Counted from the stretch's first letter, positions 4,398 to 37,860 are shown. The stretch: DNA of 42,539 bases from Myxococcota bacterium (GCA_025453525.1 JALOQD010000028.1:1-42539); one strand, 5' to 3'. Notes: a model not told the origin generated them from the letters alone. Numbers and translations: made by a program.

Positions 4398-5501
4398 CTA
4401 TTCTCGGTTGCCGAGGATGGCGCTGCGCTCTTCGAGTAACGTTGCGGCCTCTTGCGTTTGTCCGAGCTTGCGGTGGCACTCTGCCGCCTCTTGCAAGGCG
4501 TCGACCCGGCCAGGATATCCCGAATGATCGCGCAGCAGTCGACGGTAGAGCGCGACGGCCTTGCCGCAGCTCCCCTGGCGCTTTTCACAGCGAGCCAAAT
4601 AGTGGAGAGAGGTCGCCACAGAGGTCGGCGGCGCGTAGATGTCGTTGGCGACGATTTGGAGGCTCGGGCGAGCGGACTCGCAGTCCCCTCTCTGATAGGC
4701 GATGAGGGCCTGGCGAAGGAGAGGCGCTGAGGAGGCGGTGTCGGCCTTGCCTTTGGCCTGCTCTGAATACCGCCGCTGGCGTGCTCGGGTGTCGAGCTCC
4801 TCATCGGCCACTGCTTTCGAGGTCGCCCGTCGCACAGCTTCCGGAGGGTCAGCGGCGCTGTGCGAAGGGCTCGGTGCACCGGATGCCGCTGGTGGACCAC
4901 CGGCCGAAGTGCCCAAACGAGAGGGCGCGGCAGGCTCGAGGGCGCGAGCCGAACTCCGCGATCGGAGGCCTTCGTCCTGTGGAAGAGGCGATTCGGAGGC
5001 AGGAGGAACGATGGAGGGCGGAGCTGGCTCAGAACCGGCAGAGTGGGGAATTTCGGGCGGGGATTCACGCAGCGCCACTGAGGGAGGAGCGCCGTTTTCG
5101 CCCGCCATGTCGGGGTCCATGCGCAGAATCACGTAGGCGCCGACGGCCACGAGCGCGGTGGTCGCAGACAGCACCAACGCCGGTCGAAGGAAGAACCTCT
5201 GGAGCGTTTGGGCAAAGCTCGGGGCGCGCTCGATGCCGAGGCGGGCTTCGGAGGACTGGGGCCCCATCTGTAAGGCCTGTTTTCTGGCTGCTGCGAGGAT
5301 GGCGTCGTCGATGGCGGCGGGCGGCTCGAGCTGCGGCAGACGCTTTGAAAGGCGCCGAACGAGCATCAGGCTTTCGAGCTCTCCGCGGCAACGAGGACAG
5401 CGGGACGCGTGCTCGCGCAGGGGTTCGGATTCGCACTCCGATAGCTCTGCGTAACAAAGGTCGAGGAGGGCCTCGTCGAAGCGGTGGCATTCGTCGGTCA
5501 T
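4398..5501 (-). CDS. Anti-sigma factor: zf-HC2 domain, one TM helix, Pro/Ser linker, C-terminal TPR
   Basis: HASRCPRC (HxxxCxxC) motif; hydrophobic ALVLSATTALVAVGAYVIL; TPR-like SLHYLARCE...AVALYRRLLRDH; ATGA overlap with the ECF sigma stop. Confidence 0.85.
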   Translation of the reverse strand: MTDECHRFDEALLDLCYAELSECESEPLREHASRCPRCRGELESLMLVRRLSKRLPQLEPPAAIDDAILAAARKQALQMGPQSSEARLGIERAPSFAQTLQRFFLRPALVLSATTALVAVGAYVILRMDPDMAGENGAPPSVALRESPPEIPHSAGSEPAPPSIVPPASESPLPQDEGLRSRSSARALEPAAPSRLGTSAGGPPAASGAPSPSHSAADPPEAVRRATSKAVADEELDTRARQRRYSEQAKGKADTASSAPLLRQALIAYQRGDCESARPSLQIVANDIYAPPTSVATSLHYLARCEKRQGSCGKAVALYRRLLRDHSGYPGRVDALQEAAECHRKLGQTQEAATLLEERSAILGNRE

Positions 5502-6097
5502 TGGAGGGTCCTCGCGTAGTCTTCGTACGGCGAGAGCGCTCGTCGGAGGGCCTCGAGCGCGTACCGCATCCGACTTTTAATGGTTCCCTCCTTCGCGCCC
5601 ACGACTTCGGCGATCTCCTTAAACGACAGGCCGTGGTACTCGCGCAGCAGGAAGACCTCTTTCTGTTCTTCCGGAAGAGTCTCGATGGCGTCTGACAGGT
5701 CTTTCTTGAGGCGTTCTGAGATGACACCGCGGTCGGCCAAGGGCTCTTCGCTGTGGATCTGCTCGGACAGGGGGCGACCTTCGTCGGCAGTGGGCTGATC
5801 GAGGGACTGATGACGTCGGTGTTGCTGTCTGCGCGACGCGTCGATGGCCACGTTTCTGGCGATGGTGAAGATCCAGGTGGCGACCCGCGAGCCATGGCGG
5901 AACCCTCCTCCGCTGCGAACGAGCCGCAGAAAGGTCTCCTGCGTGAGATCCGCGGCTCGATCCGGAGCGCTGGAAAAGCGCAATACGAACGAGAAGACCG
6001 GCCCGCGATATCGCCGGTACAGCTGGTCGAACGCGCACGCATCACCGCCTTGAAAGCAAGTCATGAGCTCCTCGTCTGTGTCGTGCCTGGCGGTCAT
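5498..6097 (-). CDS. ECF (sigma-70 group IV) RNA polymerase sigma factor
   Basis: Region 2 DLTQETFLRL...TWIFTIARN; region 4 LPEEQKEVFLLREYHGLSFKEIAEVVG..EGTIKSRMRYA. Confidence 0.95.
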   Translation of the reverse strand: MTARHDTDEELMTCFQGGDACAFDQLYRRYRGPVFSFVLRFSSAPDRAADLTQETFLRLVRSGGGFRHGSRVATWIFTIARNVAIDASRRQQHRRHQSLDQPTADEGRPLSEQIHSEEPLADRGVISERLKKDLSDAIETLPEEQKEVFLLREYHGLSFKEIAEVVGAKEGTIKSRMRYALEALRRALSPYEDYARTLQ

Positions 6098-6533
6098 TTG
6101 CGTTCCGTAGCTCGGTAATCTGCCAGCCGAGGCACATCGGACCCCGCCTGCCCAGGGTCCGATTCACACCTTTCAAAAGAAGGACGTGCGCGGCGGCGTT
6201 TTGGATCTATTCTGTTGGGCGGAGGGTATAGGTTTGACCGTTTCGGTGTCAAAGATTATCGTTATTCTGTTTTCTTGAGTGTATATTGCATGCAAACGTT
6301 TTTCGTCGCGTTTCCGCATGCACTTTGGGATCGCAGGAATTCCAAAGAGGTGAGCCGAGTAGCAGACGCGATGTTGGATGCGGAAGAATAACTTGTAGTT
6401 TCATGATTTTGTGCCTGTGGTCCGACGTTGACAGTGCTAGCTCTTTTCGTTATTAATTTTGGCACACGCGCTATTTGCACTGTTTGTCGAGGGCTGCGGG
6501 TCGAAGAAGGCCGAAGGCCGAGAGGGAAGCAAC

Positions 6534-7352
6534 ATGTACGAGCCGCGTAGATTCTCTTTGGTGCTGGGCGCTGTTTTGGGGATCGCCCTGAGCTGGCCTG
6601 TCGGTGCGGGCGCGCAAACCGGCAAGAGCGCTGCTCCAAAGCCCGAGCCGGCCGCCGCCGGAGGCAGCGTTGGCGCGGCAGCTCCGGCCGCGGACCCGCC
6701 AGCCGCAGCTCCCAATGCGGCAGCTCCCAAAGCCGCAGCTCCCAATGCCGCAGTTCCCGATGCCGCAGCCAAGGGCGGCCAAGAGATAAAAAAGGGAACC
6801 TACGCAGTGAGGCTGCGCGATTTGGAAGATCGCATCAACCGACTCAAGGAGCAGATTTTCCGCTCCAAGGCGCGGTTGTCGCTCCTCGCGGAGACCGTCC
6901 TCGATCGCAAGATCGCTGGCTCCAAGGCCTCGATTGTGTTCCGCAACGAGATGGGCGGCTCGTTTCGTTTGATCAAGGCCACGTTCCTCCTCGATGGAGG
7001 CCCAGTGTTCAATAAGGCGGACGAAACCGGCAGCCTGTCTGACCGCGAGCAGATCGACCTGTTCGACGGACCGGTGATGCCAGGGGATCACACCGTCAGC
7101 GTCGTGCTCAATTTCCGCGGCCATGGGTATGGGATTTTCTCGTATTTGAAGGGCTATTCCTTCAAGACGCGGTCGAGTCGCACGTTCACCGTGAATGAAG
7201 GGAAATCTTTGCGCGTGGAAGTCGTCGCCTACGAGAAAGGCGGTGTGACAACGCCCCTCGACGAGCGTCCAGCCGTGCGCTACGTCGAGAATGTCGTCGA
7301 GTACCAGAATTCGGAGCAGGCACAAGAGCGGCAGCCCGAGGCGCAGCAGTGA
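6534..7352 (+). CDS. Secreted hypothetical protein (signal peptide, Ala/Pro linker, coiled coil, beta-rich C-terminal domain), first gene of the Glt-like cluster
   Basis: GAGGG RBS before ATG 6534; signal peptide ...LGIALSWPVGAGA|Q; coiled coil RLRDLEDRINRLKEQIFRSKARL. Confidence 0.75.
   Translation: MYEPRRFSLVLGAVLGIALSWPVGAGAQTGKSAAPKPEPAAAGGSVGAAAPAADPPAAAPNAAAPKAAAPNAAVPDAAAKGGQEIKKGTYAVRLRDLEDRINRLKEQIFRSKARLSLLAETVLDRKIAGSKASIVFRNEMGGSFRLIKATFLLDGGPVFNKADETGSLSDREQIDLFDGPVMPGDHTVSVVLNFRGHGYGIFSYLKGYSFKTRSSRTFTVNEGKSLRVEVVAYEKGGVTTPLDERPAVRYVENVVEYQNSEQAQERQPEAQQ
6702..6770 (+). repeat. 15-bp coding tandem repeat, about 4.6 copies (AAAPN/AAAPK/AAAPN/AAVPD)
   Basis: gccgcagctcccaat gcggcagctcccaaa gccgcagctcccaat gccgcagttcccgat gccgcagcc. 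Confidence 0.9.
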
Positions 7353-7456
7353 GGGCAGAGCTCATGTCGAATCGCACCCTAGGAGCCTGTCGGAAAATAG
7401 ATCTCCGGCTGCAAAGCAGCGGAGCATCCGATCTGCGGCCCACAAGAGGTGGGCAC

Positions 7457-9783
7457 ATGCAACCAGCATGCACCCACCGCTTGTGCTCCACATCTCGAAC
7501 GCTCGGCCGCTTTTCGCTTCGGAGTCTTTTTCCCGACAGTCTCCTAGCGAGCGCTGGTCGAGGCGCTGTCGTTGCCTTGAGCGTGTGCCTGATGGCCTCG
7601 CCGGCCGTAGCCGCGGGCGACTCAGTGGCCAAGCTTCGGGCAGAGATCCAGGATATCGCGCGGGAGGCCGATTCCCTTGCTGGTCAGTATCTCAAGACCG
7701 GGAGTCTGCAGGGAAACCAGTACGCTGCCGAGCGACTCATCGACGGCGCATCGTCTTTCTCGACATCATCGAAAATCACCCCGGGAATGTCGCTTACGGC
7801 GATGCTCTCTATTATTACGCGGATTCGCTTTTCCTCGCGCGGGACTACCTCGGCGCCAAGGATTGGTTCACCCGGCTGCTCAACGAACGCACCAAGCCCG
7901 GAGTCGCGGCCCATACGCAACAGGCGATTGAGAGGCTCATCGAGATCGCGATTCACCTGGACAAGTTCGATGGAATCGAAGCGTATTTCTCTCAACTCGG
8001 ACAGGTGCCGAGCGAGGACGCGCGCTACACAAAAGGTAAATTCCTCTATTTCAAAGGTGACCTCGCGGCGGCCCTCACCGAGTTCGAAGCCATTCGAGGC
8101 GGTTCCCTCGTGGGGCTGAAGGCCGCCTACCTCAAGACCGCCGTGCTCACGAGGCAGGGGCGCTTTCAGGACGCCATCGCGGTCGTCAATCTAGCCCGCG
8201 AGCACAAGGCCAAGAACCCAGAGGAACAGGAGATCGTCGACCTGCTCAACCTCGCTGCGGGACGTCTGTACTACGAGCAGAATTTTATCGAGCACGCTTC
8301 GGAGTGCTATCAGAGGATAAACAATAGATCCCCTTATTTCGACGTCGCTCTATACGAAGCCGCCACCGTGCTGATCCGTTCGGGTGACGCCATCCGGGCC
8401 GAGCGCGTGCTGGAGGTTCTGACCGTGGCGATCCCGGACAGCAAGTACATCCCGAGGGCCAAGATGCTCCGGGGCAACTTGCTGCTGCGCACTGGGCGCT
8501 ACGAGGAAGCCGAGAAGGTCTTTTCCGAGATGTCCGACGAGTTTGGTCCGGTCATGAATGAGCTGGATCGGCTGATCTCCGAGCAGCAGGACACTCGGAA
8601 GTTCTTCGGCGATCTCGTCAAACGCTCCATCTCTTCATTGGACAACCAGTCGGCGTTGCCGCCCCTGGTGGTGAAGTGGGTGGGAGAGGAGCGCGACGTG
8701 CAGCACGCGCTCGGGCTCGCGGCCGACATCGGGACCGTGCGCGAGACGGTTCAGGACGCGGAGCGGCTGATTCGCCTGCTCGAAGCGGTCATCAATGGGC
8801 CCAGCAGAGTGAATGCGATTCCGATTCTGCGCGACGCGATGCGCAGGGCTCAACAGCTTCAGAACCGCTTGGTGCAAATGAGAGCCAAGCTCTTGTCTGT
8901 GGCGGAAAAGGAGTTCGCCGGCTCCTCCGAGCTCGCCCAACTCGCGGCCGAACGGCGCGCGTTGACCTCGCAGCTCAAGGCCCTGCCCACGACCGTGAGC
9001 GCCTTTGAGACGCGCGAAAACGAGTCTCGCAAGGTCTTCGAGAGGATGCACAAAGAGCTCTCTCGAAACGAGGTCAGAGTGGACCAGCTCTCCGCCATGA
9101 TCGTCGCCATCGACCGCTTCATCGCAGATCCCAGGTACACCGAAGGCGCGGATCCGGCTGCGGTGGCCGCACTTTCGGACGAGCTCGCCCGGCACAAGGT
9201 GGCGGTCGCGGGAATGGCGAGTGATTTGGGTATGCTCAAGGGGGATGTGGACGGCGCGCGTTACCAAGTGGGCGTGGGCGATTCGGCCGACGAGAGCGAT
9301 CGAGCTCTGGCAGATAGGTTGAAGGCCATCTCAGGGCGGCAGCGGCAGATATTCGCCTCTCGCGGGCCTGTCGGACAGAGCCTGGACCAGGCACTCGTAG
9401 AAGTGGACGCTACGGATGGCACCCTCCAGCGGTTTGCACAAGAGGTGGATGCCGAGGCGCGTCGCAGAGTCGAGGAAATGCGGCAGCTCGTTTCGTCGGA
9501 GCGGGACGCAGTGGTGACCTACAAATCAGATTTGGTTGTTCTGGGCGACGAGGCTCAGACTGTCGTGGGTGATATTACCTACGCCAACTTCAGCAACGTT
9601 CGGCGCAAGTTTCAGGATCTCATTCTCAAGGCAGACGTGGGGATTATCGACGTCGCGTGGCTGCGCAAGGAGGAGCATTCGTCTCGGCGAGACGAGCTGA
9701 CCAAGGAGCGGCTGCAGGACATCAGAATACTGGATGACGAGTTCCAAGAGGTCCGAACCGAAGAAGCGGAGTCGCGTCCCTGA
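7457..9783 (+). pseudogene. Frameshifted secreted TPR/coiled-coil protein (GltC/NfsC-like position in the cluster)
   Basis: The signal peptide and ...AERLIDG are in the 7349 frame. IVFLDIIENHP and the TPRs continue in the 7291 frame from 7750. The start (7457, after GAGGT) is uncertain. Confidence 0.7.
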
Positions 9784-12700
9784 TGTTTACCAAGGGAAGA
9801 ACGGGCGCCAAGGGTCTCGCGCCCGAGGGTCAACGGGGAATGATGGCGTTTTCCAAATACGCAAGTGTAGTAGCGGTGTCAGGGGTGCTGTCGATCCTGC
9901 TGCTGGGTAGCTTCCAAGCCTTGGCTCGAGACGGTGCGGGCAGGGCAGAGCGCAAGAAGAAGACTCCGATCATCGCATCGGAGGTCTCTCGCGAGCCGAC
10001 CCCAGAAGAGATCTCCGCGCTCGAAGCAGCGCGCGAAACGGACATGCTGCTCTACGTGAGCCGCGTGCAGGATTTCCGCGGCGTTGTCGACGGCATGGTC
10101 CAACGGGTGTACCGAATGCGGCGAGAGCACATCGACAAGTCCTTTCAGGACCGCATCGTCGCCGAAGAGGCCCTGGTGGAGAGCGCGCGCAAGAGCGCCA
10201 TCGCGTATTTCGAGGAGTTTCTGCGCAAGTATCCGAGCGCTCCGCCGTATACGCCAGACGCGATGTACCGGTTGGCTGAGCTCTACTACGATGACTCATA
10301 CATTAAGTATCTGGATGCTTCCCAGGAGTATGGAGACAGGCAAGAGAAGGGTCTCGAGGACGAGACCGAACCGCCGATGAAGGAGTTCGATCGCTCGATT
10401 GCGCTCTTCCGCGAGCTCATCGTGCGCTATCCCGAATATCGCAACATCGACGGCGTCTACTATTTGCTCGGCTATATCCTCAACGAGACAGCTCGCGAGG
10501 ACGAGGCCCGAATCGCGTGGTTGAGCCTCGTCTGTGCCAACAAGTTCCAGTACGACCCAGTGAAATTCGAGCAAGAAAAAGCAGCCAAACCCGGTGCTGC
10601 CACGAGGCCTTCGGCGAACCTCGACACGGGCGTGGACACGACCCCGAATAAGCCGTTCGTCGATCCTTTTGTGGACTGCAAGCCGGTGACCGCCAATAGC
10701 CGCTTCTTTTTTGAGACGTGGTGGCTCGTCGGCAACTACCACTTCGATTACGACATCTCTCGCCATGGCGTTGAAACCGCCATCGCGGCGTACAAGAAGC
10801 TCATCCAAGATCCAAAGCACAAGTTTTACGACAAGGGTCTTTACAAGCTCGCGTGGAGCTACTTCAAGGCCGACCGATATCCGGAGGCCATCGAGGCCTT
10901 TACCAAGGTGGTGGACTATTCCGACGCCCATGTGGATGCCCGGCGTTCGGGAATGCGTCCAGAGGCCATCCAGTACCTCGCAGTGTGCTTTTTCACGGAG
11001 GACTGGAACGGCGACAACCTGCCGGACTCTGTGGCTGGAATCGACCGGCTTCAGGATGGCAAGCTCATGCCGCAGGACCGGGAGTGGACGCGAGAGGTCT
11101 ATCTTCGTTTGGGTGCGATCTTTTCCGACAATGAGAAGAATCAAGAGGCCATTGCGGTCTATGAGCTCTACTTGAAAAAGTGGCCTCTCGACGTGCAAGC
11201 CCCCTTTGTGCAGGAGAAGATCGCTCTCGAGTACAACAAGATGCGAGACTTCGAGTCCGAGATTAAAGCGCGCGCCGCTCTGGACAGCTATGGGCCCGAG
11301 AGCGCGTGGTGGAAAGCCAATGCCAATCGCCCGATCGAGCAGAACGAGGTCGCGCGCATGGCTCGGGACGCCCTGCTCGAGATGGCCTATCATCGGCATC
11401 GCACGGCGCAGGCGCTGCGGCAAGAAGGCCTCGTGGCCCAAGATGCGGCGCTTCTCGAGCGCGCGATTAAAGAGTACAATTTGGCAGCGCAGGCGTATCG
11501 CAAATTCATTTCCCAAAACCCCGATATACCCGATGCCTACGACATCACCTTCAACTTGGCGGAAACGCTGTTCTGGTCAGGTCAATACGAGGCTGCGCGG
11601 AAGGAGTACACTTCGGTCCGCGATTCCAATCTCGATGACAAGTTCAGGGCCGATGCCGCCAACATGGTCGTGGTGTCTCTCGACAAGATCATCGAGCAGC
11701 AAATTAAAGCAGGCAAGGTCGACATGCGCGCCGAAGCACCCAAGCCAGAGGGCACGCCCCTGGCGGTCGCGCCTATTCCCATGCCAGAGCTGCTCACCGA
11801 GCTCATGAAGGAGCGCGAAACGCTCATCGCCATCAATCCGCAGCACAAGGACGCGGGCAAGTTCAAGTACCAGAGCGCTCAGAACTTTTTCCGCTATGGC
11901 TTCTGGGACGAAGCGAACAAGCGCTACGAGCTCGTTTACAATGAGTACTGCAAGACCGATCCGATCGCCTATGTCAGCTGGCAGACCATGATGAACATGG
12001 CGACGGACATGGGCAATCTGAATGAGAAAGAGCGCCTCGCCCTGATGCAGCAGGAGAAACAGTGCACGGTCGATGGTGTCGAGAAGCTCGGCGGCGACAT
12101 CGCGGCTATCGATATCGGCACAGTGCTCGGCGATGTGGCCATGCAGCGCGCTCTCGAAAAATTCAAGACGTGCATGGACAAGAAAGAGGCGCAGTTGTGC
12201 ACCACTTCAGCGGACGACCTCGTGGCCGCGGTGAACAAGGCGCCTCAACATCCCTCTGCGGACGCGGCGCTCCATAACGCCGCCTTGGCCTATGAGCTGG
12301 CACAGCGGTTCAATAGCGCCATGCAGATCTACGGTCGAATCATCGCCGAATACCCAAAGAGCCCCTACGTTGGGAAATGCCTGTTCCAGCAAGGTCTCGC
12401 GGCGCAGAAATTCTTCGAGTACGAAAAGGCGCTCGACAATTACCGGGTTCTGGCGGACGAGAAGCGCTTCGCTGACTATGAGAACCGCACGGTGTCGATC
12501 TACAACTCGGCGGACATTCTCACGAACCTGCAGAGCTACAACGAGGCGGTTCCCTACTGGCAGCGCTATGCGCGCGAGGAGAAGGATCCGGCCAAGAAGC
12601 TCGAAGCCGAGTTCAACGCTGCGGACATGTATTTCCGCGCCAAGAAGTGGAAGCAGGCGATCAAGTCTTATGATGACTTCATCAAACGCTACAATAAGGA

Positions 12701-13421
12701 CAAGACCGCAGGCCCCCTCGTCGTAAAGGCAGCGTATCGAATCGCCAAGGCGCAGGCAGAAAACGATCGCAAGGCCAAGGTTGCCCCCTCGTGGCGTCAG
12801 ACGATCAGCCACTACGACGCTCTCGTGAACGAACCCGGCTCCATGTCCGCGGAATACGCGGCAGAGAGCGCGTTCTTGCTGGTCGAGGAAGACATGCGCG
12901 CTTTTGAGTCGTTCCAAATCAAGGGCGCGCAGAAGGTGATTGACCAGAAGATTAAAGAGGGCGCTCAGAAGGTCAAGAGTTTCGAAGAGCGCTATCGAGA
13001 CGTTCAGAAATACCGCCGCCCCGAGTGGTCGCTGGCAGCAGAGTGCCGTATCGGCTACGCGTACGAAGTGTTCGCCAAGGCGCTGCTCAATGTTCCTTTC
13101 CCGCCCTTGGACAAAGAATCTCAGAAGATGCTCAAGCAGTTGCCGCAGGAAGATCGCGACCTCGTGATGGTCGAGCTCGAGGACAAGTTCCGCGCCGCCA
13201 TGGAGCAACAGGTGGCGCCCATGGAAGAGAAGGCTCAGTCCGAGTACAAGATCGCAGTTGACCTCGCGAGAAAAGGTAACATCAGCAACGACTGGACGCT
13301 GCTCGCCCTGGAGCGGCTCAATGCGTACGATCCCGACACGTACCCGCGCCAACACAACGGAGTCGTGCTCATGCAGGATTCGTCGCTCGCCGGTCCGCAG
13401 TGGGCCTCGGAGGCCAAGTAA
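9783..13421 (+). CDS. Large periplasmic TPR protein, GltD/AgmU/NfsD-like
   Basis: 1212 aa; signal peptide; many TPRs (DAMYRLAELYY, KGLYKLAWSYFK, AALHNAALAYE); TGATG overlap upstream and TAATG overlap downstream; gene context. Confidence 0.75.
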   Translation: MFTKGRTGAKGLAPEGQRGMMAFSKYASVVAVSGVLSILLLGSFQALARDGAGRAERKKKTPIIASEVSREPTPEEISALEAARETDMLLYVSRVQDFRGVVDGMVQRVYRMRREHIDKSFQDRIVAEEALVESARKSAIAYFEEFLRKYPSAPPYTPDAMYRLAELYYDDSYIKYLDASQEYGDRQEKGLEDETEPPMKEFDRSIALFRELIVRYPEYRNIDGVYYLLGYILNETAREDEARIAWLSLVCANKFQYDPVKFEQEKAAKPGAATRPSANLDTGVDTTPNKPFVDPFVDCKPVTANSRFFFETWWLVGNYHFDYDISRHGVETAIAAYKKLIQDPKHKFYDKGLYKLAWSYFKADRYPEAIEAFTKVVDYSDAHVDARRSGMRPEAIQYLAVCFFTEDWNGDNLPDSVAGIDRLQDGKLMPQDREWTREVYLRLGAIFSDNEKNQEAIAVYELYLKKWPLDVQAPFVQEKIALEYNKMRDFESEIKARAALDSYGPESAWWKANANRPIEQNEVARMARDALLEMAYHRHRTAQALRQEGLVAQDAALLERAIKEYNLAAQAYRKFISQNPDIPDAYDITFNLAETLFWSGQYEAARKEYTSVRDSNLDDKFRADAANMVVVSLDKIIEQQIKAGKVDMRAEAPKPEGTPLAVAPIPMPELLTELMKERETLIAINPQHKDAGKFKYQSAQNFFRYGFWDEANKRYELVYNEYCKTDPIAYVSWQTMMNMATDMGNLNEKERLALMQQEKQCTVDGVEKLGGDIAAIDIGTVLGDVAMQRALEKFKTCMDKKEAQLCTTSADDLVAAVNKAPQHPSADAALHNAALAYELAQRFNSAMQIYGRIIAEYPKSPYVGKCLFQQGLAAQKFFEYEKALDNYRVLADEKRFADYENRTVSIYNSADILTNLQSYNEAVPYWQRYAREEKDPAKKLEAEFNAADMYFRAKKWKQAIKSYDDFIKRYNKDKTAGPLVVKAAYRIAKAQAENDRKAKVAPSWRQTISHYDALVNEPGSMSAEYAAESAFLLVEEDMRAFESFQIKGAQKVIDQKIKEGAQKVKSFEERYRDVQKYRRPEWSLAAECRIGYAYEVFAKALLNVPFPPLDKESQKMLKQLPQEDRDLVMVELEDKFRAAMEQQVAPMEEKAQSEYKIAVDLARKGNISNDWTLLALERLNAYDPDTYPRQHNGVVLMQDSSLAGPQWASEAK

Positions 13422-14818
13422 TGTCGACCACGACTCGTCTTCTGGTGCGTGTTTGCATGGCGGCGAGCGTCGCGCTGTGGGCCGGATGTGGTGGGGCCTC
13501 GAAGAAGGACGGTGCCTCGGCGTCGACTCCTTCGGGCCTGCCTCCGGGCGCCGGCGGCCCGCAGTCGGCCGGGGGGACAGCCTCGCAAGCAGCGACACAA
13601 CCGAATGAGCATCAGCTCTCTCCTGACGCGCGATCCGTTTACAACGACGGTCTGCAGGCGGCGAAAGCCGGGGCCTTGGCCAAGGCAGAGCAAGCCTTCA
13701 AGAACACGGTGCAGCTCGACCCCAAGGCGCCCCAGCCGCTCTACAATCTAGGCGTGCTCGCTGAACGCAAGGGCGATGACGAGACTGCGCGCCGATACTA
13801 CCTGCAGGCCCTCTCGGTGCAGGAGGACTACGCGCCGGCTGTGCTCGCCCTCATAAAGCTCGACCTGCGCACCGGAAACGGCACCAAGGCGGTGGATTTC
13901 GGAAGAGCCAAGGCGGAAAAGTTTTCCAAAGACAAATGGATTCTTGCCGCGTATGCCGAGGCGCTCATCGGCGCACGTCGCTACAAGGATGCAATAGGCG
14001 TTTCCAAAGACATCCTGCGGGTCGACGAGCGGGACGCCGACGGTTTGCTCGCCATGGCCAAGGCCAATTTGGGCATGGGGCGACTCGAGCTCGCAGAGTC
14101 TGTCTTCGATCAGGTGTTGGCAGTGGATCCGAACCGGGTGGAGGTGTTCTTCCTGCGAGCGGGGATCCGCCTGGGCGAGGGTCAAAAGGCCGCAGCGATT
14201 GAAGAGTACAAAAAGGTGCTGGCAAAACAGCCCGACCACGTCGAGGCTCTCAATAATCTGGCGAATATGTACCTGCTTTCTGGCAACTACGCACAAGCGG
14301 CGGAGCTTTTGGGAAAGGCCGTGACCCTCGCTCCGAGCATTCCCGAGCTGCGGTTGAATTACGGCAATGCCTTGCGCGGCGCGGGCAAGTGGCCTGCGGC
14401 CAAGACCCAGCTTCTCGAGGCCCGGAAGATTTCGAATCGCTTCGCAGCGCCGCTGTTCAACCTCGCTTTGGTATACTACGTTGCCGAAGAGCTCGACGGC
14501 ATGGACCGGACCGCTCGGCTCAACGAATCCAAAAAATTGTTTGCTCAGTACAAATCAGAGATGGGCTCGGCTCTGACCAAGGACGACCCGGTTGCAAAGT
14601 ACCTTAAAGAGGTACAGATGGCTCTGGACCGAGAGGCCAAGCGCATCCAAACCGAGAAGGACCGCGTCGTGCGGGAAGGCGAGCGCGCCAAGCAGCGCGA
14701 GGCCGAAGAGGCGCGCAAGGCAGCCGAAGCTGCCGAGGCTGCCAAGGCGCCGAAGGATGGCAAGGCCGAGGAAAAGAAAAAAGACGAGAAGAAGCCGGCG
14801 GAAGACGGATGGTATTGA
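13421..14818 (+). CDS. TPR lipoprotein, GltE/AglT/NfsE-like
   Basis: ATG overlaps the upstream TAA; lipobox WAGC; tandem TPRs (PLYNLGVL, EALNNLANMY, LRLNYGNALR); charged C-terminal tail. Confidence 0.8.
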   Translation: MSTTTRLLVRVCMAASVALWAGCGGASKKDGASASTPSGLPPGAGGPQSAGGTASQAATQPNEHQLSPDARSVYNDGLQAAKAGALAKAEQAFKNTVQLDPKAPQPLYNLGVLAERKGDDETARRYYLQALSVQEDYAPAVLALIKLDLRTGNGTKAVDFGRAKAEKFSKDKWILAAYAEALIGARRYKDAIGVSKDILRVDERDADGLLAMAKANLGMGRLELAESVFDQVLAVDPNRVEVFFLRAGIRLGEGQKAAAIEEYKKVLAKQPDHVEALNNLANMYLLSGNYAQAAELLGKAVTLAPSIPELRLNYGNALRGAGKWPAAKTQLLEARKISNRFAAPLFNLALVYYVAEELDGMDRTARLNESKKLFAQYKSEMGSALTKDDPVAKYLKEVQMALDREAKRIQTEKDRVVREGERAKQREAEEARKAAEAAEAAKAPKDGKAEEKKKDEKKPAEDGWY

Positions 14819-14841
14819 CGTTTCGACCCGTCGCGCTGGTT

Positions 14842-14860
14842 GCGAAAAAACTTTTTTCGC
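14842..14860. promoter_or_regulatory. Perfect 9-bp inverted repeat upstream of the motor genes, possible operator
   Basis: GCGAAAAAA-C-TTTTTTCGC in an AT-rich 234-bp gap. Confidence 0.35.
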
Positions 14861-15052
14861 CAGGTGGCACAAGATGATTTGGAAGTTTTTGGCAAAAAAA
14901 ATTGGTGCACCATTGATCGTCATGCTAGGATGTTTTGACTTTCGCGTATGGAGAACGCGCGAGTTTGAACAGGCCGATAAACGCGAGAACGCTCGAGCAG
15001 ATGAACGCACCGCTTTTAGGGTGCCAGTGCCGAGATAAGGAGGAGACCCCCC

Positions 15053-15706
15053 ATGATGCAAGGAATCGCGGAAGCCTTCGTGACCGGTGGTGGCTGGATG
15101 TATGTGATCATCATCCCGTCTGTCGTCGGATTGGGTGTGATGGTCGAGCGTTTTGTTTTCCTGTTTTTCAAGTACAACATCAACGCTAAGGCTTTCATGG
15201 CCCAGATTAACAAGCTGGTCATGGCCAACAACATCGACCGCGCCATCAAGCTCTGCAACGCCGCCCCCAACGCAGCGCTGCCCAAGGTGATCAAGGCCGG
15301 TCTCACGCGCGCCAACAAGGGCGAGCTCGAGATCTCGAACGCCATCGAAGAGGCGACCCTCGAGGTCGTGCCGGTTGTCACAAACCGCACGCCTCTGCTC
15401 GGCGGTGTGGCGAACGTCGCAACGCTGCTCGGTCTGCTCGGAACGATCACCGGTCTGATTCAAGCGTTCGCCGCTCTGGAGTCTGCGGCTCCTGAGCAGC
15501 GCGCCGCCGCTCTTGCCCGCGGTATTGCCGTGGCCATGAATACGACGGCCTTTGGTCTGATCGTGGCCATTCCCTGCATGGCCGCGCAGATGTTCTTGCA
15601 AAGTGTCACCAAGAAGATTCTCGACGAGATTGACCAGTATTCGGTCAAGCTCGAGAACCTCCTCGTGTCTCGCATCCGCGCTGGCGGTATGCCGATGCAG
15701 CAGTAG
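15053..15706 (+). CDS. MotA/TolQ/ExbB proton channel protein (AglR-like)
   Basis: AAGGAGG RBS; three TMs; ANVATLLGLLGTITGLI and GIAVAMNTTAFGL motifs. Confidence 0.93.
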   Translation: MMQGIAEAFVTGGGWMYVIIIPSVVGLGVMVERFVFLFFKYNINAKAFMAQINKLVMANNIDRAIKLCNAAPNAALPKVIKAGLTRANKGELEISNAIEEATLEVVPVVTNRTPLLGGVANVATLLGLLGTITGLIQAFAALESAAPEQRAAALARGIAVAMNTTAFGLIVAIPCMAAQMFLQSVTKKILDEIDQYSVKLENLLVSRIRAGGMPMQQ

Positions 15707-15823
15707 GAATCGGTTCGCGGTGTTGAGCCGTTGCAGTGCGCGTGTTGCGAAGACGAAGTGTAAGGTCGAAGAGACACAGCGCACAAAAGGCTTTCGTTCC
15801 GTTCGGGAACTTCCACTTTCTCT

Positions 15824-15851
15824 TGGCGCAAGCCCGTTGGGCGCCATTTTT
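15824..15851 (+). terminator. Possible weak intrinsic terminator/attenuator between exbB and exbD1
   Basis: TGGCGC-N11-GCGCCA followed by TTTTT. Confidence 0.3.
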
Positions 15852-15874
15852 AAGTGGGTCGAAGGAGTGGTGTC

Positions 15875-16384
15875 ATGGCAATAAAACGGCGCGCTGAAGC
15901 CAACATGGATGGCGATCCCCTCATCCCCATCATGAACCTGGTGTGCATGCTCATTCCGCTGCTCCTCTATGGCGCGGTTTTCATCAAGTTCATGACGATC
16001 GAGGTCAATTCGCCCAAGATCAGCTCTGGAGCTCCCGCAGATCCGCAGGAGCAGGACGAGAAGCTCAATCTCACCGTGATGATCACGGACCAGGGCTTCA
16101 CGTTCAAGGTGAACCCCAAGTTCCGGCTGCCTTGGATGGGCATGGCGACCGATGCGGCAAACGCCGGTCCTGACATTCCCAAAAAGGATGACGACTGGGA
16201 CTACGCGGAGTTCAACCGCAAGCTCAAAGAGCTCAAAGAGAGCCATCGAGAAGAGACGCAGTTGATCCTGGGTGCAGAAGACGACATCAAGTACGACGTT
16301 CTCATCAAAGCCATGGACTGGTCTCGCGGAACGGGCGAAGATCCGCTCTTTCCTGCTGTGACCCTGACGCGTGGCGTTGTCTGA
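15875..16384 (+). CDS. ExbD/TolR family protein 1 (AglQ-like)
   Basis: AAGGAG RBS; N-terminal TM PIMNLVCMLIPLLLYGAVF; C-terminal LILGAEDDIKYDVLIKAMD...LFP. Confidence 0.88.
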   Translation: MAIKRRAEANMDGDPLIPIMNLVCMLIPLLLYGAVFIKFMTIEVNSPKISSGAPADPQEQDEKLNLTVMITDQGFTFKVNPKFRLPWMGMATDAANAGPDIPKKDDDWDYAEFNRKLKELKESHREETQLILGAEDDIKYDVLIKAMDWSRGTGEDPLFPAVTLTRGVV

Positions 16385-16517
16385 GGTTTTTCGTTTTTTG
16401 TTCCGGCGTTCGCGTGTTCGGTGTGGGTTCGTCGGTTGCGCTGGCCTGGCTTCTTGAGTAGAATTTTTGGGTCTATCCAGAAGCAGGCGAGACAGACTAT
16501 TCCACGGAGGCGAGAGA

Positions 16518-17087
16518 ATGAACTCCCAGCAGCCAGATAATGAAGTCGACGCCCTGTGGCTCGAGAAACGCAAAGCAGCCAAAGCCAAGCGTAAGCAGCG
16601 GGCAATAGAGCCGCCCGTCCTCATGATCACGTCTCTCATGGACGCGTTCACGATCATTCTCGTCTTCCTCCTCAAATCCTTCGGAGCCGACCCTGTTCAG
16701 ATCCGCGAGTCGGACGACCTGCGGTTGCCTCGTACCACTTCGAGCAAAAATCTCGAGGATGCCGTGGTTATCAGCATCTCCTCCAAGGCCATTCAGGTCG
16801 ATGATAGGAAAGTGGCGGACTTGCGCAACGGAATGGTCGACGAGAGCCTGAAACGCGACGGCGCCGATGGCCTGCTCATCAATCCGCTGTATGATCAGCT
16901 CAAAGAAAAGGTGCAGCACCTCAAGATGGTGGCTGCTCGGACCGGTTCTGAGTTCAAGGGCAAGGCGCTGATCGTGGGTGACAAAGGCACGAACTACCGC
17001 GTCATCACCGAGGTGCTGTACACGGCGGGTCAAGCTGAATTCAACAATTTTTTGTTCGTGGCCGCCGAGGGCAAGCTAGAACCGTAG
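16518..17087 (+). CDS. ExbD/TolR family protein 2 (AglS-like)
   Basis: GGAGG RBS; TM ITSLMDAFTIILVFLLKSF; IVGDKGTNYRVITEVLYTAGQAEF. Confidence 0.9.
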   Translation: MNSQQPDNEVDALWLEKRKAAKAKRKQRAIEPPVLMITSLMDAFTIILVFLLKSFGADPVQIRESDDLRLPRTTSSKNLEDAVVISISSKAIQVDDRKVADLRNGMVDESLKRDGADGLLINPLYDQLKEKVQHLKMVAARTGSEFKGKALIVGDKGTNYRVITEVLYTAGQAEFNNFLFVAAEGKLEP

Positions 17088-17170
17088 CCTCCTCAATGCC
17101 AGGGGGCGTTTTAGAGCGGTTGCCGCGCCTCGACGTCCTAACGGTGACAACAGTGAAGAGGGTATAGTCG

Positions 17171-18655
17171 ATGGCGGCTCCGAATCCAACTCAAGCCAAG
17201 AACAATCCCCCACCAGGGGCTCGCGGCGCTCGACCGGCGGAACCTCCGAAACCCGAGGGGCCGAAGGTCCTGCGAATCGGCATTATTCAGGGCGGAAAGA
17301 TCATCGAAGAGCGCATCATTCGCACGCGTGACACCGTGACGGTGGGGCCTTCCGAGAAGAACACGTTCGTCATTGCCTCCAACGATTTGCCCAACCGGTT
17401 TGAATTGTTCGAGACAAAAGACGGCGCTCACTACACCTTGAATTTCACCGATGTGATGACCGGGCGCTTGGCCTTCGAGGGAGGCGTCAAGGACCTCGCC
17501 GAGTTGCGGACGAGCGGAAAAGCCCGCGCCAAGGGCAAGGTCTATCAGCTCGACATCGATGATAAGTCCCGCGGCAAGGTCGTGATCGGTGAAACCACGG
17601 TGCTTTATCAGTTCGTGGCGCCGCCGCCCATTCAACCTCGGCCTCAGTTGCCAGCCGCGGTTCGGGGTGGCCTGTTCAAGGACATCGAGTGGTTCGTCAC
17701 GATAGCGTTGCTCGTCTCGCTCGTCGGCCATGTCGGGTTCGTCGGTGCGCTCGTCGCTCACGATTGGCCCAAGGTGAGCATGATGGACAAGTACATGCAG
17801 CTCCAAGAGCTCATCGCGGCGAGCGACGCAACCTTCGAGGACAAAAAGCAAGCGGACCAGGCAGACACGAACGCCGAGGGCGACGCTGCCACGGACAAAG
17901 AGGAAGACAAGAAGGCGAGCGACGATAAAAAGAACGCCGGCAAATCCAAGGCGGCAGATGAGGACCAGGGGCCTAAAAAATCGGCCGAGGAGGTCGCGCG
18001 AGAGCGCGCCGAGCGTCGTGCGGCCCTTGCCGAACAACTCGCGCAACGAGGGCTCAATAAGATCCTCGGCAGCATGGGCGGAGGCGAGGCTGGCGGAGCG
18101 ATATCGGACGTGCTGCGCGGCGGCGACGTCGGCGCAGACCAAGACGAGCTCTTGTCCCAAGTGGCTGGCGTGGGCGTTGCGACCGGAGACGCTGCCGGAA
18201 AATTGCGAGGACCCGCCGGAGGCAAGGGTTCGGGCGAAGCGGCGGACATCGATCAAATTCGCATGGCCGGCGGCGATGCGGATGTGCGCACATCTGGCGC
18301 AGGGAGCGAGCGGGCCGTTCGCGGCAATGTAAAGCGCAGAGATCCCACTGCCGTAGACGGCACCGGCGTTCTCAATCCCCAGGAGGTGGCGAAGGTCGTG
18401 GCGCGCCGAATTGGGGCCATTAAAGGGTGTTACGAGAGAGCCCTGCGTCGCAATCCCAATCTGGAGGGTAAGATCACCGTGAGGTTTACTGTGGCGGGTA
18501 GCGGAAAGGTGACCTCTGCGAATGCCACACAGAATGAGCTGGGTGGCGAGGTGGGAGACTGCATCATCTCGGCCTTCAAGGCCTTCAGGTTCCCGCCGCC
18601 CGAGGGCGGCTCCGCTACGTTCGAATACCCGTTCATGTTTACTCCAGCGGGCTGA
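17171..18655 (+). CDS. GltG/PglI/AgmX-like transducer: cytoplasmic beta domain (FHA-like), TM, flexible linker, TonB-C-like domain
   Basis: TM WFVTIALLVSLVGHVGFVGALV with an SxxxH motif as in TonB/TolA; C-terminal VVARRIGAIKGCYERALRRNPNLEGKITVRFTV...VGDCI...FRFPPP...FEYPFMF. Confidence 0.85.
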   Translation: MAAPNPTQAKNNPPPGARGARPAEPPKPEGPKVLRIGIIQGGKIIEERIIRTRDTVTVGPSEKNTFVIASNDLPNRFELFETKDGAHYTLNFTDVMTGRLAFEGGVKDLAELRTSGKARAKGKVYQLDIDDKSRGKVVIGETTVLYQFVAPPPIQPRPQLPAAVRGGLFKDIEWFVTIALLVSLVGHVGFVGALVAHDWPKVSMMDKYMQLQELIAASDATFEDKKQADQADTNAEGDAATDKEEDKKASDDKKNAGKSKAADEDQGPKKSAEEVARERAERRAALAEQLAQRGLNKILGSMGGGEAGGAISDVLRGGDVGADQDELLSQVAGVGVATGDAAGKLRGPAGGKGSGEAADIDQIRMAGGDADVRTSGAGSERAVRGNVKRRDPTAVDGTGVLNPQEVAKVVARRIGAIKGCYERALRRNPNLEGKITVRFTVAGSGKVTSANATQNELGGEVGDCIISAFKAFRFPPPEGGSATFEYPFMFTPAG

Positions 18656-18899
18656 TGAGTGGGCCACGAAGAGGGAGCGTTCTCATGGCTTTGAACGCAA
18701 TGCAGAACCCTTGGCAAACAAGCGCATCTGGAAAGACGAAACGCGGCGGCGAGCGCTTTCGAATTTATTGGGTTGCGGCCCCACGGTTTGTGAGTATTGT
18801 TAACGCTATTCAAAAAGGTTTTGAAATTTCTTGTTCGAATGGCGGTTTGCTTGGGAGCGGTGCGCAAAGAGGCTTGAGAGCTCTCGAGGAGTGAGGGAG

Positions 18900-19520
18900 A
18901 TGACGAAACTGCGAAGGTTCTCTTGGGCATGGGTCAGCGCGGGGCTGCTCGTGACGGGCGTTGTCTTGGACGGCCCAGTGCACGCGCAGGAGTCTGCACC
19001 TCTCCCGACGTCTGGATCTTCGAGCGCTGCGGATGTCGCGGTGGATGTCACCGTGCGCAGTGACGCGCCGCTCACGGGAGAGCAGAAGCTCGCGTGGGTC
19101 GAAGAGCAAACCCGCAAGGCTCGCCAGAGCAAAATCGTCGTGCAAAACATGCTCGACCAGTCTCGACGCGAGAAGGACACCATCAAAATTACCTGTCTCG
19201 ATGACAAGTTCACGCAGATCAACGTGAACCTTCGAGGGATCGAAGAGCGCACCGTGGGCCTCGAAACCGCGGTTCGCGCGAACGACGAAGAGGGAGCCGG
19301 TCAGCAGTTCACCATTCTCAAGGTCTATGTGGTGCGAGTGCAGGGTCTCGTGGCAGAGGCCGAGAATTGCATCGGTGACGTTGACGTGGTACTTGGTGAA
19401 TCTGAAACTATCGTGACGGTGGACGACGACATCACGGCAGAAGATCCGTCGAATGCGTCGACCCCGGAACCCGTGGATCCAGGTGTTGAGCAGCCTACGC
19501 ATCGCAGCGGTTTTTATTGA
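18900..19520 (+). CDS. Secreted helical hypothetical protein with two Cys
   Basis: GAGGGAG RBS; signal peptide ...DGPVHA|Q; KDTIKITCLDDK and EAENCIG. Confidence 0.75.
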   Translation: MTKLRRFSWAWVSAGLLVTGVVLDGPVHAQESAPLPTSGSSSAADVAVDVTVRSDAPLTGEQKLAWVEEQTRKARQSKIVVQNMLDQSRREKDTIKITCLDDKFTQINVNLRGIEERTVGLETAVRANDEEGAGQQFTILKVYVVRVQGLVAEAENCIGDVDVVLGESETIVTVDDDITAEDPSNASTPEPVDPGVEQPTHRSGFY

Positions 19521-19618
19521 GTGCACAATGGGAGATATTTTGCGTTTCATTGGGCAAGCGAGCGCGGAAGTTGTCGAGATTAGGAGGGGCGAGGTGCCGT
19601 TAGGTGGCACAGCGTGAG

Positions 19619-20929
19619 ATGATGCACAAGCTCTTCGCAAGTCTACTGCTGGTGGCCTTTTTTGTTCTTCCTGGCGCGGTTCGAGCCCAAGGTTGGCTGG
19701 AAGACCGCGCCGATTCCGAAGGTCCGGGCATCCGCCTTGGAGACTCTCTTCTCTTGCATCCAGGTCTCGCTCTCGAGGGAGGCTATGACACCAACCCACT
19801 TCGACAAGAAGAGGATGTGTCTGGCGCCGGACGATTGCGAGTGACCCCCTATGTCGACCTTACGACCCGGGGCGCCAAACGGCGCGTGGAAGACGACGGA
19901 GCCATCGAGAAGCCTGCTGAGAAAGTTCGCTTTGGACTGGGGCTCGCTGGCCATTACGATTGGTATTTCTCGGATGAAGCGGCCATCCGAAGGCAGCGGG
20001 ACTTTGGAGTCGATTTCAAGACCAACCTCGCGGTGTTTCCCGAAGGCGCGTTCACGCTGCTCTTCGACGCGGCCTATTCGCGTTCCCTGACGCCCTACGA
20101 GACCTCTGCCGATTGGTGGGCGCACCACGTCTTCTCCCCTTCCTTGGGGTTCATCGTGCGGCCAGGAGGCGGCACCTTGAGCTTCGAGCTCGGCTATCGC
20201 CTCAACGGCATCTTGTTCGAGGACGAACCCCTGGCTACCTCGGACAACCGGTTGAGCCACGAGGTTCGCTTCTTGACGTCTTGGAAGGTGTTTCCCAAGA
20301 CCGCGCTCATGTGCAAGGTGTACTTTTCGCCGACCATGTACCTGAACGACGCCAGCCCCAACACGAACTCCAAGCCCATCCACAGCTTCCTCGGGCTGCA
20401 AGGCCTGCTCACCGACCGCGTGGGGCTTTCTCTGTTCGTGGGATATGGGGCTGGAATGTATGATCGAGGCGACGAGTTCGATAGCGTGATCGCCACAGCC
20501 GAGCTCATGGCCTTCATTACGCCTACGGCGACGGTTCGCTTGGGCGGTCAGCGGGACTTCTACGATTCTTTCTACTCGAATTTCTACGTCAAGAATGGCG
20601 GCTATCTCGGCTACGAGCAGCTCTTTGGCGGGATGTTCCTCGCGGCCTTGCGAGGCAGTGTCTACTATCGCCAATTTTCGGCCTTCAATGAGAACAACCC
20701 CGGAACGGTGATCGAAGCCAACGGGACCCGGGGCGACCTTTGGGCAGAAGCGAGCCTGCTCTTGGAGCTGAGAGCCACGGATTGGCTGAGCTTCCATCTG
20801 TCTGGCGCGTATCAAGGGAATATCAGCGACTTCACGACGACCTTCAATCTCGAAGATGGCACGTCGATGGAGCAGGGGTGGGGCTTCCACCGCTTCGAGG
20901 TCATGGCCGGTGTGCGAGGCCATTATTGA
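19619..20929 (+). CDS. Outer-membrane beta-barrel protein, probable OPX partner (Wzp/EpsX-like)
   Basis: Signal peptide ...PGAVRA|Q; LHPGLALEGGYDTN; alternating amphipathic strands; C-terminal aromatic residue (GVRGHY); lies directly upstream of the OPX gene. Confidence 0.8.
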   Translation: MMHKLFASLLLVAFFVLPGAVRAQGWLEDRADSEGPGIRLGDSLLLHPGLALEGGYDTNPLRQEEDVSGAGRLRVTPYVDLTTRGAKRRVEDDGAIEKPAEKVRFGLGLAGHYDWYFSDEAAIRRQRDFGVDFKTNLAVFPEGAFTLLFDAAYSRSLTPYETSADWWAHHVFSPSLGFIVRPGGGTLSFELGYRLNGILFEDEPLATSDNRLSHEVRFLTSWKVFPKTALMCKVYFSPTMYLNDASPNTNSKPIHSFLGLQGLLTDRVGLSLFVGYGAGMYDRGDEFDSVIATAELMAFITPTATVRLGGQRDFYDSFYSNFYVKNGGYLGYEQLFGGMFLAALRGSVYYRQFSAFNENNPGTVIEANGTRGDLWAEASLLLELRATDWLSFHLSGAYQGNISDFTTTFNLEDGTSMEQGWGFHRFEVMAGVRGHY

Positions 20930-20988
20930 GCGATCCCCAACGTGCCTCGAGTCACAGCGCATTCAAACTTTCACGAACTGGTCATGAC

Positions 20989-21603
20989 ATGAACAAGCAC
21001 TCGGAGCGCGTCGTTGTCGTTATGCTTCTCCTCCTCGCTCAAACCTTTGGATGTGGCGGAAGAATCGTACCGGCGCCGACCCTGCCCACCTCGGAATTCT
21101 CCCCGCCCCCAGACACGACTCTCGGGCCAGGGGACGTGTTCGATGTTCGCGTGTTCGGAGAAGAGGATTTGACGAGCACGTTCCGCGTGGCCTCTGACGG
21201 GGGCATCGACTTTCCGCTCGTGGGCGTCGTGACCGTGAGTGGCAAGACGCCCACCGAAGTCGCCAAGACCATCGAAAAAGGGTTGCGCGACGGCGACTTT
21301 TTGAGAAGCCCTCAGGTTTCGATTTTCGTCAAAGAGTACAATAGCAAAAAGATCTCCGTGTTCGGCCAGGTCAAGCAGCCTGGGACTTTTCCTTACAGCG
21401 ATGGGATGAGCGTGGTCGAGGCCATCTCCAAGGCCGGCGGTTTTACCTCCATGGCTCGAAAAAACGATACGACCGTCATCCGCGTCGTGGAGGGAAAAAA
21501 AGAGCGCTTTCAGGTTCCGGTCGAGGCCATTGGACAAGGCCGAGAGCCCAACTTCGTGTTGCGCACCGGCGATATCGTGTTTGTTCCAGAACGCATTTTC
21601 TAA
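20989..21603 (+). CDS. Short OPX polysaccharide export lipoprotein (Poly_export + one SLBB domain)
   Basis: Lipobox TFGC; LGPGDVFDVRVFGEEDL, DGGIDFPLVG, VFGQVKQPG, EAISKAGG; ends LRTGDIVFVPERIF with no C-terminal membrane helix; 204 aa. Confidence 0.92.
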   Translation: MNKHSERVVVVMLLLLAQTFGCGGRIVPAPTLPTSEFSPPPDTTLGPGDVFDVRVFGEEDLTSTFRVASDGGIDFPLVGVVTVSGKTPTEVAKTIEKGLRDGDFLRSPQVSIFVKEYNSKKISVFGQVKQPGTFPYSDGMSVVEAISKAGGFTSMARKNDTTVIRVVEGKKERFQVPVEAIGQGREPNFVLRTGDIVFVPERIF

Positions 21604-21801
21604 AAGTTTCAACGACCCGCTCAGTGGCAATGACGTCGGACCGAAGAATCCCCTCTCCAGGCCTGCGTAACTCAGACATCGAACATCGATTTGGACGCAG
21701 ACCGTCTCGAACAGTCCTCGGCCTTTCAAGGGGATTCTTCAATCCTGCATTATGATCGATAGCGGATCGTTGAAAATTCTGCTGGATTTGGCGCTGGCGC
21801 C

Positions 21802-21845
21802 ATTGACCGCTGTGGTGCAGTCGAATACCGTCCACTGTGGTCAAT
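21802..21845. promoter_or_regulatory. Inverted repeat / hairpin upstream of the TIGR04563-type gene
   Basis: ATTGACCGCTGTGG-N16-CCACTGTGGTCAAT; 13 of 14 positions pair, counting one G-U. Confidence 0.35.
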
Positions 21846-21883
21846 AGGCATACAGCTGCGCGTGGAGTACGCCGAGGGTGGCA

Positions 21884-37835: not shown

Positions 37836-37860
37836 GTTTTCACTCCAAGGTACTTTGCAT

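Follow-up and report, generated by a model that had tools for sequence, protein, structure and literature searches.

The seven gene types of the Agl-Glt core complex (exbB, two exbD genes and gltC-, gltD-, gltE- and gltG-like genes) occur as co-directional sets in Gammaproteobacteria and Betaproteobacteria, Geobacter and Fibrobacter, where the function of the complex is unknown, and were reported as dispersed in myxobacteria (Luciano et al. 2011, PMC3169522). The same study reported for Myxococcus xanthus a cluster termed G4, with the gltD homologue MXAN_1922 and likewise of unknown function. In this organism, the Agl-Nfs machine moves the spore-coat glycan once a Wza-type translocon has exported it (Wartel et al. 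2013, PMC3858216). A related locus was analysed computationally in a stretch of 42,539 nt from a Myxococcota bacterium (GCA_025453525.1 JALOQD010000028.1:1-42539), the whole of which is referred to below as the window. The cluster under study, at positions 6534-21603, comprises genes for a Glt-like periplasmic complex with its own ExbB-ExbD1-ExbD2 motor, followed by genes for an outer-membrane beta-barrel and for a short lipoprotein of the outer-membrane polysaccharide export (OPX) family.

The class-3 OPX and porin pairs WzaB/WzpB, WzaX/WzpX and WzaS/WzpS consist of a short lipidated OPX protein without an outer-membrane helix beside a barrel of about 18 strands, and the papers describing them place the pair in a Wzx/Wzy pathway (PMC9603273, PMC9601211, PMC12819527). 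WzpB is MXAN_1916 and is encoded 23 bp from wzaB, MXAN_1915 (PMC9603273), which was described as 'orphan-like' and lies 1.016 Mbp away from the genes for biosurfactant polysaccharide (BPS) (Islam 2020). The crystal structure of M. xanthus WzaB is available as PDB 9N9A, and two motifs of the protein, a C-terminal Phe-Phe and Arg106-Arg107, were assigned to contacts with the porin and with the polysaccharide co-polymerase (PCP), respectively; this 2026 paper left open by which mechanism class-3 systems pass the polymer through the outer membrane and what supplies the energy (PMC12819527).

Like the core complex, the seven gene types of the window sit in a single locus (7457-18655) on one strand, with the differences that this version occurs in a myxobacterium and adds two secreted proteins (g1 and g9) and an OPX/porin pair. 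The arrangement of eleven co-directional genes, all on the + strand with intergenic distances of -1 to 244 bp, had been proposed in a preliminary description of the stretch and was borne out by open reading frame (ORF) reading and by Pfam and NCBIfam scans of the window ORFs, from which the gene families were assigned (Table 1). As in G4 with wzpB/wzaB of M. xanthus, Glt-paralogue genes are followed by those for a beta-barrel and a short OPX protein. Residues 21-204 of the OPX protein aligned with the whole of PDB 9N9A (E 1.1e-52), both sequences ending level, and about half of the aligned residues were identical by our own count of the printed alignment. The location of M. xanthus wzaB/wzpB near a cluster of glt paralogues, which the preliminary description had stated, proved to be real, since the G4 gltD homologue MXAN_1922 stands beside MXAN_1915/1916. 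Because the OPX protein matches WzaB from end to end and MXAN_1922 adjoins wzaB/wzpB, the locus is read here as the counterpart of G4 plus wzpB/wzaB, in an ancestral form that retains its own ExbB-ExbD1-ExbD2 motor and acts on an exported polymer, a reading to which we give about an even chance (roughly 0.5). The core complex and G4 have been known since 2011 and class-3 OPX proteins with their porins since 2022; the present locus is a further member, in the ancestral, self-contained form.

The conservation of this arrangement was surveyed in 40 loci fetched around orthologues of the GltG-like protein (16 from the window's own family, 12 from other families of its class and 12 from other classes), which were searched with the eleven window proteins by tblastn (E < 1e-4). 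An OPX gene was found downstream of the GltG-like gene and on the same strand in 32 of the 40 loci. In the own family, all three motor genes were present in 15 of the 16 loci, the barrel in 15 and the OPX gene in 14, both OPX-less loci ending before the OPX position. The 12 loci from other families of the class contained no motor genes and all of g1, GltC, GltD, GltE and GltG, together with the barrel (11 loci) and the OPX gene (9 loci). All three motor genes reappeared in 11 of the 12 loci from other classes, with the barrel in 8 and the OPX gene in 9. The same gene order thus recurs in relatives from several classes, which places the arrangement above chance, and the conservation of OPX and barrel genes beside the Glt-like genes, which had been put forward as a point to check, was upheld. 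Within the order, 17 of 21 genomes, counting the window's own, encode a full-length orthologue of the GltG-like protein (identity 53-66%), and across the phylum 277 of 401 sampled genomes gave a match at E <= 1e-30; a scan of genome contigs for close loci returned three. Nothing exceeded the cut-offs of the GltG and Tgl equivalogs in the 401 sampled genomes, with one of the runs made in an impaired strict mode, and ten large genomes chosen by hand were likewise negative.

A quick maximum-likelihood tree of GltG-like proteins, with a GltG from another contig of the same genome (C154) as a long-branched outgroup, placed the own family (support 100) as sister to the motor-less clade (87), with a joint support of 98 and the other classes outside. 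Because this tree follows taxonomy, vertical inheritance of the locus is indicated. The distribution of the motor genes (15/16 loci in the own family, 0/12 in the rest of the class, 11/12 in other classes), taken together with the tree, indicates that the self-contained, motor-bearing form is the ancestral state and that a single loss accounts for the sampled motor-less families of the class. The earlier proposal that this locus has its own motor is therefore supported, with the three motor genes present and their ancestral status suggested by survey and tree. In the motor-less loci (L059-L070), a membrane protein of 200-250 aa stands at the place of ExbB, with a faint likeness to MotA_ExbB (E 0.005, below cut-off) and no ExbD; this protein appears to be an ExbB that has degenerated or taken on another role. 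In one locus of the own family (L053, G014:C60), ExbB has diverged (45% identity) and ExbD genes are missing between it and the gltG-like gene; on this gene content, the motor has eroded here a second time, independently.

The loci also differ in a small GltF/CglF-like gene (78-97 aa, with a weak match to the CglF model, E 2e-4), which follows gltE in 24/24 loci outside the family (12 from the same class and 12 from other classes) and in 0/16 inside it. The 234-bp gap between gltE and exbB in the window (14819-15052) does not contain this gene, so that the absence of a gltF equivalent from the locus, as originally described, was confirmed against what is standard for this type of locus outside the family. 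The single GltF-like copy detected in the genome (C480:9062-9322, -) is 56% identical to the copy in L062; it is adjoined by a 164-aa ORF, read as arginine-repressor-like with no family search, and by large secreted proteins, with no Glt genes. In a locus from another class (L074, G023:C78), a gene for a Tgl-like tetratricopeptide repeat (TPR) lipoprotein (174 bits, cut-off 225) was found about 20 kb from the Glt-like locus on the same contig, and neither barrel nor OPX gene was detected after the gltG-like gene.

The ExbB-type protein shares 61-72% identity (54% in one locus) with the copies at the same position in other classes and 40% with the copy in the genome's other motor, on contig C298. 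The membrane-helix Asp of ExbD2 is kept in 27/27 sequences. At the proton-carrying position of ExbD1, Asp was never found in the window or in 25 orthologues, most of which, with the window, have Asn, with Ser in two and Gly in one. Because ExbD2 keeps the Asp and ExbD1 never has it, the stator probably combines one protonatable and one non-protonatable ExbD-type subunit; the same Asn/Asp pair occurs in the genome's second motor. The GltG-like protein consists of a cytoplasmic N-terminal domain, a single membrane helix, a K/E/A-rich linker and a TonB-C-like C-terminal domain of the AgmX/PglI type that carries two invariant Cys. No FHA domain was matched in this protein, whose alignment to NF033760 begins only at profile position 173.

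The structure model of the barrel (pLDDT 85.4, pTM 0.81) contains about 18 strands, a count that is approximate as it was taken from the DSSP string, and Foldseek returned barrels of 18 strands, among them OccK and the alginate exporter AlgE, at a TM score of about 0.5, with no closer solved relative. By sequence, the window protein had no relative in the PDB and no Pfam or NCBIfam family; PF10082 (BBP2_2) matched 15 of 31 barrel orthologues and not the window protein. After the signal peptide, the barrel proteins share a conserved N-terminal extension, Q-x-W-L-x-D-R, which is a candidate docking site. The barrel gene ends 59 bp before the OPX gene, and by this position its product would be the WzpB-like partner porin of the OPX protein. 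The latter has a lipoprotein signal read directly from the sequence (LLLAQTFGCGG, lipobox FGC), Poly_export at residues 39-114 and SLBB at residues 120-199 of 204, and ends five residues past SLBB without a C-terminal outer-membrane helix, as in the class-3 pairs. Unlike the published pathways of those pairs, the window showed no Wzx, Wzy, PCP or glycosyltransferase genes in the domain scan of its ORFs. The whole genome holds three OPX genes in 5.9 Mb and two PCP genes, and one PCP-2A gene, which stands where contig C244 ends and lacks an OPX gene on its assembled side, the other side being unassembled, may mark a partner pathway of the locus.

In the mechanism proposed for this locus, the stator, with one Asp-bearing and one Asn-bearing ExbD-type subunit, would convert proton flow into movement of the GltG-like transducer, whose TonB-C-like end, together with the scaffold of GltC-, GltD- and GltE-like TPR proteins and the two secreted proteins, would reach the outer membrane. 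There, the short OPX lipoprotein would sit with its porin of about 18 strands. The preliminary description had conjectured that this barrel is the outer-membrane target of the TonB-C domain. The machine would handle a polymer of a Wzx/Wzy pathway encoded elsewhere, either by gating or driving its passage through the porin or by moving the exit site or the polymer over the surface, as Agl-Nfs does. We infer this coupling to polysaccharide export from synteny and by analogy with Agl-Nfs, which like the proposed locus combines a Glt-paralogue envelope complex with a TolQR-type motor handling a Wza-exported glycan. The two systems differ in that Nfs uses AglRQS encoded elsewhere, has the outer-membrane parts NfsA/B/H and is not encoded beside its exporter, and none of the window proteins is an orthologue of an Nfs protein. 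What the analysis establishes is the gene content, the orthology by synteny, the age and spread of the linkage and the occurrence of the locus's sequence in RNA libraries, whereas contacts among the parts and an effect on export are predictions.

The rival explanation that survives best is that two independent neighbours are involved. The Glt-like complex would then do another envelope job, for example outer-membrane tethering or protein or lipid transport, the OPX/porin pair would serve the Wzx/Wzy pathway on its own, and their adjacency would be an old, tolerated linkage or reflect shared regulation; we regard this as a possible explanation, if on the whole an unlikely one. Several observations favour it or weigh against a motor acting on polysaccharide export. 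Coupling is deduced from gene neighbourhood, and orthology to G4 from the numbering of locus tags, the match to WzaB and the synteny seen in other genomes. With a polar insertion in MXAN_1922, M. xanthus glides and twitches on soft agar as the wild type does (Luciano et al. 2011, text and Figure S5 legend; PMC3169522). Mutants of the BPS pathway spread poorly, unlike the G4 mutant; because of these phenotypes, G4 is not needed for BPS export in M. xanthus, and wzpB/wzaB probably have a transcript of their own. As published, the WzcB-WzaB-WzpB model is complete and requires no motor (PMC12819527), and in Sandaracinus wzaB is contiguous with the BPS synthesis genes (Islam 2020). The available texts of the OPX papers (PMC9603273, PMC9601211, PMC12819527 and Islam 2020) mention no Glt, TonB or ExbB neighbour, and a link between G4 and WzaB/WzpB was not found in the searchable literature, where the tags MXAN_1917-1924 and RS09295-09320 lead only to Luciano et al. 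(2011), whose figures and PDF supplements fall outside the search. At the survey threshold, the OPX gene went undetected in 8/40 loci and the barrel in 6/40, contig ends explaining two of the OPX gaps and one of the barrel gaps. In the window OPX protein, the Phe-Phe of WzaB is replaced by Ile-Phe (...VPERIF against ...VPESFF) and the Arg-Arg by Arg-Ser (LRS against VRR). In the present assembly, moreover, the GltC-like gene changes frame near 7723-7771: in five orthologues the N-terminal 85-96 residues mapped to frame 2 (7520-7771), and the remaining part of all six orthologues aligned with frame 1, starting at 7621-7738. Across 7410-7972, DNA contigs from the sample that is probably the source are broken and differ in sequence, and the frameshift may have arisen when mixed strains were assembled, in which case the gene need not be dead.

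The question of a common transcript was approached with RNA data from three wetland metatranscriptome runs, belonging to three coded studies of one year that may represent one campaign; such libraries can contain DNA, and their contigs reveal neither strand nor single transcript. Contigs near-identical to the locus covered the motor genes: one spans exbB, exbD1 and the start of exbD2 (14956-16667), another runs from exbD1 into the gltG-like gene (15914-17232) and a third joins exbD2 and the gltG-like gene (17007-17298). Shorter contigs fell on the TPR genes, g9 and the barrel gene, and none from the three runs on 20888-21408, tested for RNA over the OPX gene, which says nothing on absence. Contigs of two runs begin at 14956, in the gltE-exbB gap and 97 nt before exbB, one of them with adapter-like letters ahead. 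This points weakly to an RNA end there and to transcription of the motor genes from a start of their own, hence to more than one transcript, a further point in favour of independent neighbours. Against that explanation, order and strand are kept across several classes, with the OPX gene at this position in the great majority of the loci in spite of so few OPX genes per genome, and the linkage outlasts both the loss of the motor genes and the loss of the GltF-like gene. In addition, the gaps concerned measure 59-244 bp, a promoter and terminator scan of 5900-22300 did not rise above shuffled expectation, and the closest characterised relative, Nfs, acts on a Wza-exported glycan.

It is improbable that the locus encodes a system of the Tol-Pal or TonB-ExbBD kind, serving envelope integrity or nutrient uptake and including TPR proteins by coincidence. 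In favour of such a system stand the ExbB and ExbD Pfam domains, a match to the TonB C-terminal-like domain (TIGR01352, 25.7 bits) and TPR matches with a weak YbgF/CpoB likeness. However, the ExbB-type protein falls well short of both the TolQ equivalog (59 bits, cut-off 221) and the ExbB equivalog (30 bits, cut-off 206), the locus contains no TolB, Pal or TonB-dependent receptor, the transducer ends in an AgmX/PglI-type domain such as GltG and GltJ have, and the genes follow the order of the Glt core complex throughout.

Judged by its gene content, the locus is not a gliding motor, because the equivalog cut-offs are missed by far (47, 88 and 161 bits for GltC, GltE and GltG, against 450, 225 and 650), the GltG-like protein has no FHA domain and a better GltG/GltE pair exists on contig C154, where GltG with its FHA domain reaches 442 bits and GltE 105 bits. 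The preliminary description, which had set the locus apart from the canonical gliding set, was correct in this respect. On contig C298 (L084, G000:C298:30000-48005, about 8772-16934), a second motor locus encodes a TolQ-like and two TolR-like proteins and an 807-aa protein with FHA and AgmX/PglI (TonB-C) domains, with a CglB-like gene nearby (77 bits, cut-off 200), and is probably the gliding-type motor of the source organism. It is hence very improbable that the locus under study is the organism's gliding motor (Agl-Glt) or spore-coat machine (Agl-Nfs), as its protein architectures, which are those of GltC, GltD, GltE and GltG with AglR, AglQ and AglS, might suggest, since all Glt cut-offs are missed three- to ten-fold, the closer GltG/GltE pair and the second motor are encoded on other contigs, the C154 GltG is set apart from the window group by a long branch, no GltF-like gene is present, no GltA/B/H, GltK or GltI/J turned up in the Pfam and NCBIfam scans of window ORFs, in which no search was aimed at those six families, and the G4 mutant of M. 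xanthus glides.

If the locus is indeed the ancestral counterpart of G4 plus wzpB/wzaB acting on an exported polymer, the old and widespread pairing hints at a role for M. xanthus G4, whose function has been unknown since 2011. In a broader and more tentative proposal, complexes of the G4 type would be proton-powered accessories of class-3 OPX/porin translocons, whose stator, by way of the GltG-like TonB-C protein and the TPR scaffold, would open, drive or relocate a WzpB-type porin, so that export of a Wzx/Wzy polysaccharide across the outer membrane would be actively energised; such an exporter-coupled machine would be the ancestor of the Glt and Nfs machines. The linkage across several classes provides a testable candidate for a proton-driven periplasmic machine on a polysaccharide exit pore, which is better studied in the motor-bearing form, since one Asp-to-Asn substitution in ExbD2 should inactivate the motor. 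The finding also bears on the evolution of the gliding and spore-coat machines, which Agrebi et al., in an opinion in Nat Rev Microbiol in 2015, are said to have derived from a capsule-assembly system.

Among the remaining proteins of the locus, g1 reads as a coiled-coil stretch followed by a beta-rich part and had no Pfam, NCBIfam or PDB match. It is present in 34/40 of the surveyed loci (identity 37-81%) and belongs to a family of at least 1603 proteins; among the 120 listed, those with a name are all 'hypothetical', and most come from Myxococcota. The second secreted protein, g9, had no Pfam or NCBIfam family and is present in 28/40 loci, being rarely detected outside the class (3/12). In a protein atlas, g1 and g9 matched only unnamed Myxococcota clusters. 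The names carried by relatives (Polyangia, Sandaracinaceae, Myxococcota) assign the window to the Myxococcota and probably to the Polyangia. The size and position of the GltD-like protein fit gltD, and it is kept in all 36 loci that extend far enough; no GltD model matched it, and its name was given from architecture (size, TPR content and position) and Luciano et al. (2011). For g1, the GltC-like and GltD-like proteins, ExbD2, g9 and the barrel, no paralogue was found elsewhere in the genome at E < 1e-6.

Table 1. Genes of the cluster and of the adjoining regulatory pair, with positions in the window.
Feature	Position	Strand	Characteristics
g1	6534..7352	+	Secreted, 272 aa, signal peptide read from sequence; first gene of the conserved locus
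GltC-like periplasmic TPR protein	~7457..9783	+	TPR families; NF033756 (GltC) match; start uncertain
GltD-like large TPR protein	9840..13421	+	1193 aa, signal sequence; TPR_6 and TPR_16
GltE-like TPR lipoprotein	13421..14818	+	NF033758 match, profile positions 22-407 of 411; lipobox LWAGC
ExbB/TolQ/AglR-type proton-channel subunit	15053..15706	+	PF01618, E 3e-24
ExbD/TolR-type subunit 1 (ExbD1)	15875..16384	+	PF02472
ExbD/TolR-type subunit 2 (ExbD2)	16518..17087	+	PF02472
GltG-like transducer	17171..18655	+	NF033760 match, profile positions 173-649; NF033768 AgmX/PglI C-terminal domain, 89.5 bits, cut-off 40
g9	18900..19520	+	Secreted, 206 aa, signal peptide; family-less
Outer-membrane beta-barrel, WzpB-like position	19619..20929	+	Structure model of ~18 strands
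Short (class-3-type) OPX lipoprotein, WzaB-like	20989..21603	+	Poly_export and SLBB, 204 aa
Extracytoplasmic function (ECF) sigma factor	5498..6097	-	Sigma70_r2, r4_2, ECF; divergent from the cluster
Putative anti-sigma factor	4398..5501	-	N-terminal Cys/His motif, C-terminal TPR (Pfam); overlaps the end of the ECF sigma gene

The cluster is flanked upstream by the ECF sigma/anti-sigma pair and downstream by housekeeping genes. A pair of this kind stands upstream of g1 in 8/10 tested loci (6/6 in the own family, 2/2 in other families of the class and 0/2 in other classes) and is a candidate regulator of the cluster. Farther downstream in the window, two long ORFs (660 and 452 aa; 33559-36683, -) have no Pfam family, and a 1542-aa RHS/YD-repeat protein is encoded at 37861-42489 (-). 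The G+C content of 36000-42000 falls to 0.50-0.56, compared with about 0.60 elsewhere, and this stretch is possibly an acquired island of the polymorphic-toxin type.

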